In this document: positions 1,525-10,222 of the stretch, one piece after another
Position numbering within the stretch: position 1 is the stretch's first letter
How the letters are laid out: the number at the start of each line of letters is the position of its first letter
NCBI GenBank assembly: GCA_040877935.1
Contig: JBBDNB010000050.1
Span: 1 to 57,032, forward strand
Source of the DNA: Chitinophagales bacterium
GTDB taxonomy: Bacteria; Bacteroidota; Bacteroidia; Chitinophagales; CAIOSU01
Reading direction: 5' to 3'
Length of the DNA stretch: 57,032 nucleotides
Program-made: the position numbers and the translations under genes
The notes under the pieces: model-generated
Seen by the model: only the letters and a program-made list of their open reading frames with translations
Told to the model about the DNA's origin: nothing
Database searches by the model: none

Positions 1525-1926
1525 TCAAAGAAACAATTTCCTAATCCCCGACATATGTTTTATTTCTTCAAAAGTGCTTGTCAATACAGGCTTTGATAAA
1601 AACTTCATCACAAAAGGATTGGTCTCGGCTTTCTTTTTATCAAATTCTGCAATAGAAGAGGTAAGCATAAAAACAAAGGTATTTTCAGGCACGGCAACTT
1701 CTTCCAGCTCATCGAGAAATTCCCAGCCGTTCATCACCGGCATATTGATATCGAGAAAGAGAATGTAGGAAGTGTCTTTGTTGTAGGCTTCTTTTAAATA
1801 ATCGAGGGCAAGGCTACCGTTTTTGAAAACCAAAGGCGCAGTGTGAAACCCGGTTTTTTCAATCATTTTTTTTGACATAAAAATGAATATGTCATCGTCA
1901 TCAATAAGTAAGAGTTCTGTCTTCAT
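1525..1926 (-). CDS. Single-domain response regulator receiver (CheY-like)
   Basis: Seen: LLIDDDD near the N-terminus, LDINMPVMNG, and no output domain in 133 aa. Confidence 0.8.
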   Translation of the reverse strand: MKTELLLIDDDDIFIFMSKKMIEKTGFHTAPLVFKNGSLALDYLKEAYNKDTSYILFLDINMPVMNGWEFLDELEEVAVPENTFVFMLTSSIAEFDKKKAETNPFVMKFLSKPVLTSTFEEIKHMSGIRKLFL

Positions 1927-1978
1927 TAATTAGTGTTTGTCTATTAAGTCAGATGTCTGCTTCAGAATGTTCGAGTTC

Positions 1979-7900: not shown

Positions 7901-10222
7901 TTCTCCCTCAACAATTTCCCTGCTTTTCAGATGCTTAAAGGTTTCCAATGCCTTGGTATTGAATTTCAATATATTGTAGGAAGGATCGACCAGGATAAAC
8001 GCCTGTAGATCGTTGTTGAGCAGAGCCTGGGTATTGGCCTGGATTTGTTGTAAGAGTTTATCTTTGTGTTGCAGCTCCTCATTTGCCACCCTGAGTTCTG
8101 TATAGGTAATTTGAATTTCCTCATTGGCACTTTGCAGTTCTTCATTGCTGGTTTCTAGCTCTTCATTGGTACTTTGCATTTCTTCGTTGGTACTTTGCAG
8201 CTCTTCATTCAGCGATTGCAATTCTTCATTGCTGGTTTCTATTTCTTCAATATAAGTCTGTAGGTGTTCTTTGGTTGTGCCCAGTTCATCTTCCAGTTCC
8301 TGGATGCGCATATTCACAAGGCCTTCCGTGTTTTCTGCTTTTCCGGTAGATACATATCTTTCTATATCCAACTTTTCGAAAATGACGATAAAGTAATTTT
8401 CTGTTGATTCCGTGTAAATAAGTGGTTGGGCAGTGATACGAACAAAATGTAAAGCATCGAAAAGCTTAAAGCGTTTGATATTGCTTTTTATGATATTGCG
8501 CTCTTTTATAGCTTTGGAAAGTACGGAACGCAGCTCAATCTGCAATTCAGGATTGGCCATTTTAATCAGGTTCACCTGTATGCTTCCCGGGCTCAGCGTC
8601 AGGAAAAGCCTTACATCTCCGTTGACTTCCTGGATGTCGTGGTTTTCGTCAACCACAACATAGGGATGCTCATAGGTATTGAAAAGGGTTTCTTTGACTT
8701 TCTCCTGCAGGCTCAGTTGGTTTTCCTCTTTAACTGTTTTTTTATCCGGGTAAATTTCTTGTTTTTGCGCTTTATAGTTTGATAATTTTATTTTGTGGAA
8801 ACTGCGACCGCTTTTGCGCTTAAAAATTTTGTTTTTAGTGTCCACTGATGAGAAAAGATTATTGAATTGTCCTACTGTTTCTGATTTTCCGAGAAACAGG
8901 TAGCTTTCCGGATTTAAGGAATAGTGAAATACGGGAATGATTTGCTTTTGCAATGCCGTGTTGAAATAGATCAACAAATTGCGGCAGGAAATCAGGTCAA
9001 TTTTAAGGAAGGGCGGGTTTTTGATAACATCATGCCTGGAAAACAACACCATTCCCCTGATTGCTTTGATCAGTTCAAATTCGTTGTTTTTCTTGATGAA
9101 ATATTTTTCCCGAATGCTTTTGGATAAATTTTCGAGTGAAGCTTCGGGATATATTCCTTTTCGTGCTTTTGAAATGGCGCGTTCGTCAATATCAGTCGCG
9201 AAAATCTGGATTTTGTAGTCCTGAATTTTGTCTTTTAATATTTTACTGAGCAGAATGGCAATGGAGTAGGGTTCTTCACCCGTTGAGCAACCCGGCACCC
9301 ATATTCTTATTGGCTCCTGTTTTCCTTTATTCTTGATGATTTTTTTCAGGTAAGTTTCCAGCGCCTTGAATGCTTCTTTATCCCTGAAAAATGTTGTTAC
9401 ACCAATCAGGATTGTTTTAAACATTTCATCGGCTTCACCCGGTTTTTTTTCTATCAAATTCAGATATTCCTTTATGGACTGAACGCCAAGTGCATTCATT
9501 CGCTTTTCCAGCCTGCGGCCAATGGTAGCAGATTTGTAATTTGAAAAATCTGCATCGCTGTATTTTCCGAGCAAATAGAGGATTTTATCTATAGCAGAGG
9601 TCTCTTTTTCAATGCTGTCTTTTTTTATTTTCTTTCGCATGTCCGTGTTGAGGTAGCGGTGAATTTCTTCACCCATTTTTTCGGGAGGAAGCACTGCATC
9701 CGTCATTCCTGTATTAATTGCGGAAATCGGCATTCCGTCATATTTAGCCGTTTCGGGTTCTTGCACAATGATGTAGCATTCTACCTCTTTTAATGCAGTT
9801 ATTCCGGCAGCCCCGTCAGAACCTGTTCCCGAAAGCACAATAGCTATGACATTGCTGTTTTTATTTTGTGCCAGCGATTTGAACAGCACATCAACCGAAG
9901 GTTTTGGGCCAATTGCAGACCCCGGTTTTTGCAGTATTATTTTGTTGTTCTTCACAGCAATTTCCTTGCCGGGAGGGGTGATATAGACTTTATTGCTTTC
10001 TAAAGTCTTATTGTTTTCGGCTTCTGCGACACTTAATTTTGTCTTTTTGCTGAGCAATTGCACAAGCATACTCTTGTGCGTTGGACTTAGATGTTGCGCA
10101 ACAATTACACAGGTGTTTTTCAGTTCGGGTAAGTGAGACAAAAATTTCTGGAGTGCTTCAAGTCCACCTGCGGAGGCTCCTATGGCAATGATGTGGAGTT
10201 TATGGGTGGGATTTGTATTCAT
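5000..10222 (-). CDS. Giant hybrid signalling protein: CheB methylesterase + CheR methyltransferase + PAS + heptad coiled coil + multiple PAS/GAF + HisKA/HATPase kinase
   Basis: Seen: CheB-like N-terminus ([15 protein letters not shown] ... [10 protein letters not shown]). CheR-like region ([11 protein letters not shown] ... [21 protein letters not shown]). Repeated NEELQS heptads. A C-terminal H-box [16 protein letters not shown] followed by ATPase N/G1/G2 boxes. Domain order is inferred from these motifs. Confidence 0.85.
   Translation of the reverse strand: [1740 protein letters not shown]
8113..8256 (-). repeat. About seven tandem copies of a 21-nt unit inside the giant kinase gene
   Basis: Seen: repeated units of ttcttcattgctggtttctag and ctcttcattggtactttgcat type. 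They translate (minus strand) to [ST]NEE[LMI]Q[ST] heptads, a coiled-coil segment. Confidence 0.75.

Follow-up and report, generated by a model that had tools for sequence, protein, structure and literature searches.

Spo0B of Bacillus and ChpT of Caulobacter (PMC3433190), both dimeric histidine phosphotransferases, use a dimerization and histidine phosphotransfer (DHp)-type hairpin with a phosphorylatable histidine that is not subject to ATP-dependent autophosphorylation and that is placed between two receivers; both proteins keep a degenerate domain resembling the catalytic and ATP-binding (CA) domain, and neither has a receiver (REC) or PAS domain. In the MrrA hub, a single-domain receiver hands phosphate to kinase-like DHp proteins (PMC5964349), while the Lvr phosphorelay of Leptospira runs from the kinase LvrA through LvrB (REC-DHp-CA) to LvrC (REC-anti-sigma) (PMC13269768, PMC5863495). 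Here we describe a five-gene signalling locus, g1 to g5, from a Chitinophagales bacterium, located in a 57,032-nt stretch of DNA (the window; positions 1 to 57,032 of contig JBBDNB010000050.1, assembly GCA_040877935.1), and compare it with these systems. Our verdict is that the locus is a variant of a putative multi-step phosphorelay with a widespread, uncharacterised DHp-only component, the REC-PAS-DHp protein g4, and an optional CheB-CheR lead kinase, g1.

As a preliminary description of this DNA had reported, all five open reading frames (ORFs) are present on the minus strand, arranged head to tail (Table 1), and Pfam searches bore out the CheB, CheR, HisKA and HATPase assignments made there. 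The second gene, g2, is indeed a membrane histidine kinase: its MASE11 domain (residues 27-190, E 6.5e-25, 88.4 bits against a cut-off of 27.3) is followed by HisKA and HATPase_c, the layout of MASE11 membrane sensor kinases. Both g3 and g5 contain Response_reg and were rightly taken for receivers, and g4 combines Response_reg, PAS and HisKA with no HATPase match, in line with its earlier reading as a receiver-PAS-phosphoacceptor protein without an ATPase domain. Two absences claimed earlier were likewise found in Pfam: none of the five proteins has a DNA-binding domain, and no MCPsignal, CheA or CheW was detected in the window ORFs scanned, which comprised 35 of its 38 reading frames of 150 aa or more and three shorter ones (133, 142 and 127 aa); apart from the locus itself, the longer frames scanned are housekeeping or unrelated genes. 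The locus had been read as a multi-step or branched phosphorelay in preference to a kinase/transcription-factor pair; its domain content fits this reading, with two kinases, three receivers, a DHp that can act only as phosphoacceptor and no output domain, and the core genes occur together in relatives.

Relatives of g4 are numerous, with at least 516 confirmed by tblastn on contigs representing one genome per species, and gene order was counted at 80 of their loci with 10-kb flanks, drawn from Bacteroidota, Balneolia and Leptospira. A g3-type receiver lies directly upstream of g4 at 66 of the 77 evaluable loci, and a kinase with a g1/g2-type core lies directly upstream of that receiver at 55 of 58. 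A g5-type receiver directly follows g4 less often (29/73), and two or three tandem kinases are found at 11 of 52 loci. The conserved core therefore consists of a kinase, an Rcp-like receiver, a REC-PAS-DHp protein and an optional second receiver, and the sensor region of the lead kinase is interchangeable between genomes: a CheR-bearing (CheB-CheR) protein is encoded at 3 and a MASE11-bearing protein at 5 of the 80 loci. The full gene set had been described as unusual as a unit, which does not hold for this common core; judged from these comparisons, the locus is a local variant of a common Bacteroidota cassette, with CheB-CheR and MASE11 as optional add-ons.

Neighbourhoods in relatives thus keep the core genes together, but the exact five-gene order was found in none of the other genomes examined. 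The closest relatives of g4 show the order big kinase, small kinase, REC, g4, REC, and Indibacter (loci L072 and L001) has the same four parts in another order, namely MASE11 kinase, CheB-CheR kinase, REC and REC-PAS-DHp protein. All-against-all clustering of the other ORFs at the 80 loci, done to look for an output gene conserved next to the cassette, yielded antisense shadow ORFs only, and no cluster occurred at more than 7 loci. The only identical fragment found for the locus was a partial g4 in a Chitinophagales metagenome-assembled genome (P0121), and a look-up of the exact g1 sequence in the assembly collection returned no record.

The component to be compared with the known phosphotransferases is g4. 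In an AlphaFold2 (AF2) model (predicted local distance difference test score, pLDDT, 86), a receiver (residues 1-116) leads through a long helix into a PAS domain (155-251) and a two-helix DHp hairpin at 253-335 (helices 253-295 and 303-335). The chain ends after the second DHp helix, with no CA domain in the model or in the family alignment, and Foldseek matched the PAS-DHp part of histidine kinases as well as LvrB. The predicted phosphoacceptors are Asp62 and His278 (histidine codon at 2298-2300). Family members share 50-63% identity and are found in Bacteroidota, Balneolia, Ignavibacteria and Leptospira; in the family alignment D62, T90, K112 and H278 are invariant. All 120 homologues compared are 328-360 aa long and carry the H-box SHxxRxP with its histidine, which is followed by 51-81 residues. 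The residue next to the histidine is hydrophobic (Val, Ile or Met) in 115 of the 120, and position His+4 is Ala in 114. A truncated pseudogene was considered and rejected, since length and C-terminal end are shared by all 120 homologues. Published dissection of HisKA proteins gives meaning to the positions His+1 and His+4: an acidic residue follows the histidine in working kinases, and phosphatases have Thr or Asn at His+4. The invariant histidine of g4, which appears to be neither self-loadable nor phosphatase-competent, would suit a phosphotransfer station, and we read g4 as a putative gated histidine phosphotransferase in a His-Asp-His-Asp relay.

This candidate station resembles Spo0B and ChpT in its DHp hairpin with a phosphorylatable histidine, in the absence of a functional ATP-binding domain and in its placement between two receivers, but it differs from both in having no degenerate CA-like domain and in carrying its own REC and PAS. 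As a DHp-type protein that would be fed by a receiver, it also recalls the MrrA hub (PMC5964349). The likeness to the Lvr relay is that a kinase would feed a protein in which an N-terminal receiver is connected through a helix to the DHp that it controls. LvrB, which g4 matches over REC and linker, is its closest solved relative in layout (PMC13269768), although LvrB retains a catalytic domain, whereas g4 has an extra PAS, no catalytic domain and, in most members, no acidic residue beside the histidine; against the NCBIfam LvrB model g4 scores 43.9 bits, where the cut-off is 500.

At some loci, g4-like paralogues stand beside the canonical g4 (L064, 2292-3770; L068 and L070, Mucilaginibacter), including one 492-aa form and 361-aa forms that have a g4-type receiver without PAS-DHp. 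At 21093-21977 on the plus strand, the window itself also encodes a protein of 295 aa in which a receiver is combined with an RsbW-like HATPase_c_2 domain. This is the layout of LvrC (PMC13269768), and the only full-length relative of the window's protein in the PDB is 9qih 'SenB'. That this protein, 11 kb from the cassette, is an output of the relay is speculation.

The kinase cores of g1 and g2 are 52% identical (BLASTP, E 2e-81), and the 22-residue H-box helices of the two are nearly identical. For both cores the top-scoring NCBIfam model is that of the LvrA core, with all NCBIfam scores far under the family cut-offs. The H-box type read here in both, FAYV[AT]SHDLQEPLR, is one that we take to occur in Cph1/CphA kinases. 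On the receiver side, g3 is a close relative of RcpA (PDB 1k68, E 8.7e-35) and Rcp1 (1i3c, E 1.4e-31), with Asp63, Thr93 and Lys115 read from its sequence; the locus differs from the cyanobacterial Cph1-Rcp1 and CphA-RcpA phytochrome pairs in that neither g1 nor g2 has a bilin-binding GAF or PHY module and in that the cassette adds g4 and g5. The g3 protein shares 35% identity and the beta1-alpha1 motif VEDNEGDxFL with the receiver of g4, while g5 is of another subtype, with 23-25% identity to either. Since the partner-recognition helices of g1 and g2 are almost the same, the two kinases probably share phosphotransfer partners, the expected ones being g3 and the receiver of g4.

From domain content, conserved residues and gene order, which were read directly, we infer every phosphoryl and methyl transfer, and co-transcription, in a scheme whose chances we regard as about evenly balanced: g1 to g5 would form one signalling unit built on the widespread cassette, in which two kinases feed a His-Asp-His-Asp relay and g1 methylates itself. 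The cytoplasmic g1, through PAS and CheB-CheR, and the membrane-bound g2, through MASE11, would sense different inputs, and each would autophosphorylate on its Cph1/LvrA-like DHp. The phosphoryl group would pass from histidine to the aspartate of g3, to Asp62 of g4, or to both. As g4 is predicted to be unable to bind ATP, its His278 would be loaded by back-transfer from a phosphorylated aspartate, either its own Asp62 or that of g3, and would hand the group on to Asp59 of g5 or to an unlinked regulator, with the receiver and PAS domains of g4 gating the relay. In g1, the receiver-less CheB and the CheR would demethylate and methylate Glu-Glu pairs of their own helix, thereby setting kinase gain and providing adaptation without a receptor.

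In the lead kinase g1, Pfam identifies CheB_methylest (E 1.5e-56), CheR_N (211-261, E 2.6e-11), CheR (275-464, E 5.4e-56), PAS_10/PAS_4 (733-844; PAS_10 733-841), further PAS domains to about residue 1470, HisKA (1519-1583) and HATPase_c (1631-1738), so that the order along the chain is CheB, CheR, a cryptic PAS, a long heptad helix, about six PAS domains, HisKA and HATPase_c. The CheB domain has no regulatory receiver; its catalytic triad, Ser17, His44 and Asp136, is present and is invariant across 16 homologues. In CheR, the homologue alignment shows two invariant stretches, one with W308, G311, C312, T314, G315, E316 and E317 and the other R414-F420 (RNLLIYF); from general knowledge of CheR proteins we take both to bind S-adenosylmethionine. 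Residues 505-624, the first part of a stretch (505-980) encoded at 7283-8710, match Pfam PAS only at E 0.12, and a PAS-like domain is suggested here by the helix and strand pattern of an AF2 model of residues 1-980, which was used for domain limits alone. The preliminary description had proposed a CheB-CheR-PAS/GAF-histidine kinase, and every part of this was recovered except GAF, which was detectable neither by Pfam, whether run on the whole protein or on segment 975-1121 alone, nor by searching PDB sequences. That 147-residue segment (6860-7298) carries the motif CLYKITS and has no Pfam or PDB match.

More than 8000 homologues of g1 exist, many annotated as 'CheB/CheR fusion protein', and g1 is a plain member of the CheB/CheR fusion sensor kinases: it has every domain of their layout (CheB_methylest, CheR_N, CheR, PAS_10, HisKA, HATPase_c) and no structural difference. 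Over the full length, its best relatives, with Belliella and Indibacter-type genomes among them, show 44-50% identity. Literature searches turned up no functional study of these fusion kinases, so membership in the group says little on function. In an Indibacter-type region (L001, 1051-9591; Logan SRR35644451) and in Indibacter alkaliphilus (L072), the genome region of the cassette also holds a second module, in which a 1465-aa kinase with CheB is joined by a kinase with MASE11 and a receiver of 133 aa, together with a 347-aa MASE11-HisKA protein that is apparently without an ATPase domain, or is split in L072. Such CheB-kinase/MASE11/receiver modules have apparently been duplicated and shuffled.

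The best-conserved part of g1 is the helix that follows CheR and the cryptic PAS, and that precedes the PAS_10-type domain. It contains six to seven Glu-Glu pairs placed exactly 7 residues apart in a heptad pattern and followed by x-x-Ser-Thr. The helix core is present in 119 of 120 g1 homologues, and 77% of its columns are invariant, as against 35-37% in the CheB and CheR domains. The methylation sites of chemoreceptors offer a comparison: sites 295, 302 and 309 of E. coli Tar are spaced by seven residues, and the older consensus reads Glu-Glu-x-x-Ala-Ser/Thr. Like the adaptation system of the methyl-accepting chemotaxis proteins (MCPs), g1 pairs a methyltransferase with a methylesterase, the active sites of both being intact, and has Glu-Glu pairs seven apart on one helix face and a motif, Glu-Glu-x-x-Ser-Thr, close to that consensus. 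It differs in that the enzymes and the putative substrate lie on one polypeptide, that CheB has no receiver and that the output is the histidine kinase of the same chain; nor is it part of a classical Che pathway in the scanned window ORFs, in which receptor, CheA and CheW are absent. Homology of the helix to chemoreceptors was considered and rejected, Pfam and PDB searches having returned generic coiled-coil matches only.

Because its conservation exceeds that of the catalytic domains, the helix is a candidate for self-methylation, and we put forward, as a tentative possibility, that it is the own substrate of the CheB and CheR enzymes. Methyl esters written and erased on the same chain or on a dimer partner would alter the stability of the coiled coil, whose heptads place Asn at a and Leu at d, and through it the gain of the attached kinase. 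It is a serious alternative, if not a probable one, that the CheB-CheR module acts on another, unlinked protein or is vestigial, and that the helix is a mere signalling coiled coil joining the sensors to the PAS array. Long helices commonly connect sensor domains to kinase domains (PMC13269768), the Asn-a/Leu-d heptads suit a dimeric coiled coil as read from the sequence, and the helix bears no similarity to chemoreceptor domains. A plain coiled coil, however, would not need the near-invariant surface Glu-Glu, Gln, Ser and Thr residues; the helix core here is more invariant than the enzyme domains. The module is unlikely to be a vestige because its catalytic residues are conserved. As for another substrate, the CheB-CheR module also exists without a kinase, in proteins of about 980 aa encoded by solitary genes with no receptor or signalling neighbours, so that no partner gene lies nearby.

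Two further alternatives to the relay scheme concern the role of g4. The first, which we consider unlikely, is that g4 is a phosphate sink or phosphatase, its receiver competing with g3 and its DHp dephosphorylating or sequestering phosphorylated g3 or g5, and g4 thus influencing how the response is timed. Two-component systems are known to include both sinks that bear a receiver and phosphatases that act through a DHp, and the pattern of presence, with g5 missing from about 60% of cassettes and g3 almost always there, is compatible with such a role. Against a phosphatase stands the Ala at His+4, in place of the Thr or Asn needed for HisKA phosphatase activity, and pure binding or a sink would not need the histidine that is invariant throughout the family. 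The second, less probable again, makes g4 the substrate of a split kinase, an LvrB-like protein with an outsourced catalytic domain whose DHp receives its phosphoryl group in trans from the ATP-binding domain of g1 or g2, perhaps as a heterodimer, so that g4 would be a kinase subunit under the control of its own receiver and PAS domains. In its REC-linker-DHp layout g4 does resemble Rec-controlled kinases, LvrB among them (PMC13269768), and one to three complete kinases are encoded just upstream of the g4 cassette; but the acidic residue after the histidine, which activates it for autophosphorylation, is replaced by a hydrophobic one in nearly all members, and the g4 DHp sequence QSHVVRAPLARI is unlike those of g1 and g2, which makes heterodimers unlikely.

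Gene spacing bears on whether the five genes act as one unit. All junctions had been described as short or overlapping, which is true of g2/g3, where the g3 start overlaps the g2 stop by 4 nt, and of g3/g4 (7 nt); these are the sole tight junctions, because 89 nt separate g1 from g2 and 179 nt separate g4 from g5. In 31 relatives a g5-type receiver follows g4, and in 29 of them the distance between the two, measured to the ORF start, is at most 19 nt, the exceptions being 45 and 365 nt. The g4/g5 spacer of the present locus, an element missing from relatives, is bounded by 29-nt inverted repeats (79% complementary), contains an inner GC-rich hairpin at 1982-2013 (CCCGCCCGAAC/GTACGGGCGGG) and has an RNA fold z of -5.3; no second copy was found in the window or, by exact 35-mer, in metagenome contigs, and there was no Rfam match. 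It looks like a small inserted element resembling a miniature inverted-repeat transposable element, and it could attenuate g5 expression. A scan for the motif TAnnTTTG placed a candidate Bacteroidota-type -7 promoter element, TAACTTTG, upstream of g1; as one of six same-strand matches in 10 kb, it is weak evidence. The same scan found no match in the g1/g2 or g4/g5 gaps, and scans for sigma-70 promoters and terminators, whose models are not suited to Bacteroidota, gave results at chance level. From this arrangement, g1 to g5 are presumably co-transcribed. That the genes are neighbours by chance, g1 and g2 being independent kinases beside a three-gene cassette, is very improbable: the two wide gaps and the free variation of lead-kinase sensor parts between genomes speak for it, but the kinase directly upstream of g3 has a g1-type core in 55 of 58 cases, g2 overlaps g3, Indibacter likewise groups a MASE11 kinase and a CheB-CheR kinase with g3 and g4, and the internal gaps are free of the TAnnTTTG motif.

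Several points weigh against the relay scheme with self-methylation that we prefer. The 89-nt gap, and the 179-nt gap with its strong hairpin, could break transcription. As g5 is absent beside g4 at about 60% of loci, it may not be the obligate acceptor of g4, and the HisKA match of g4 itself, at 26.2 bits, falls just below the Pfam cut-off of 26.9. CheB-CheR proteins are rare among the lead kinases of the cassette (3/80), so that the relay as such does not depend on the methylation module. The helix shows no similarity to the signalling domains of chemoreceptors by Pfam or PDB search and matches only the older, shorter methylation consensus, with Ser for Ala. The AF2 model of g1 residues 1-980 has a predicted template modelling score (pTM) of 0.32, so that docking of the helix against CheR or CheB cannot be read from it. 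Finally, literature searches on CheB-CheR fusion kinases, the helix motif, MASE11 function and CA-less DHp proteins returned no study of these families, and no biochemical data on any of their members.

Table 1 Positions in the window of the g1-g5 genes and of the features discussed in the text.
Feature	Positions	Strand	Description	Evidence
g1	5000-10222	minus	CheB-CheR-multiPAS histidine kinase, soluble, 1740 aa	ORF
g2	3564-4910	minus	MASE11 membrane kinase, 448 aa	ORF
g3	3139-3567	minus	Rcp1/RcpA-type single-domain receiver, 142 aa	ORF
g4	2106-3131	minus	REC-PAS-DHp protein without ATPase domain, 341 aa	ORF
g5	1525-1926	minus	Single-domain receiver of a subtype other than g3, 133 aa	ORF
g1 CheB methylesterase domain	9662-10189	minus	aa 12-187, without N-terminal receiver	Pfam
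g1 CheR_N and methyltransferase domains	8831-9592	minus	aa 211-464	Pfam
g1 cryptic PAS-like domain (putative)	8351-8710	minus	aa 505-624, between CheR and long helix	AF2 helix/strand pattern
g1 single helix	8018-8320	minus	aa 635-735, about 100 residues	AF2 model
g1 helix core	8117-8299	minus	aa 642-702, Glu-Glu pairs at 7-residue spacing	Translation
g1 kinase core	5009-5668	minus	HisKA (H-box SHDLQEPLR) and HATPase_c	Pfam, translation
g4/g5 spacer	1930-2109		About 180 nt, bounded by inverted repeats; overlaps g4 stop codon	Repeats, RNA fold
Candidate Bacteroidota-type -7 promoter element, TAACTTTG	10307-10314	minus	85 nt upstream of g1 start codon	Motif scan

The locus is flanked upstream by a DUF4442 gene and downstream by a tRNA-Leu(CAG) gene and a convergent esterase gene. 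The tRNA gene (1331-1415, minus strand) lies immediately downstream of g5 and has a TAnnTTTG-type motif of its own, TACCTTTG at 1444-1451, 29 nt upstream, as well as a terminator-like hairpin at 1422-1437. A second leucine tRNA, tRNA-Leu(GAG), is encoded at 26630-26716, flanked within 25846-28001 (plus strand) by genes for a protein with an AbiEii-type nucleotidyltransferase toxin domain and a Fic/DOC protein; this region is possibly a small islet of the mobile or defence kind. Positions 23942-24733 on the minus strand encode the shell protein of an encapsulin (Linocin_M18, E 1e-83).

The gene set described here should not be treated as exotic, its CheB-CheR and MASE11 parts being optional on a conserved core. 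If the relay scheme is correct, it would provide a working model for a very common, unstudied Bacteroidota cassette, in which interchangeable kinases converge on an Rcp-type receiver and a gated, DHp-only phosphotransferase. If the reading of the helix is correct, the CheB-CheR fusion proteins of organisms without chemoreceptors would have a candidate substrate in their own most conserved stretch, and methylation-based adaptation outside chemotaxis would become testable with one purified protein. Taken together, and as a doubtful but possible combination, CheB-CheR and the helix would form a receptor-free methylation memory that tunes a kinase, and the REC-PAS-DHp proteins a new class of gated phosphotransferases without a CA remnant. 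Bacteria without chemotaxis would then gain sensory adaptation inside an ordinary two-component pathway.

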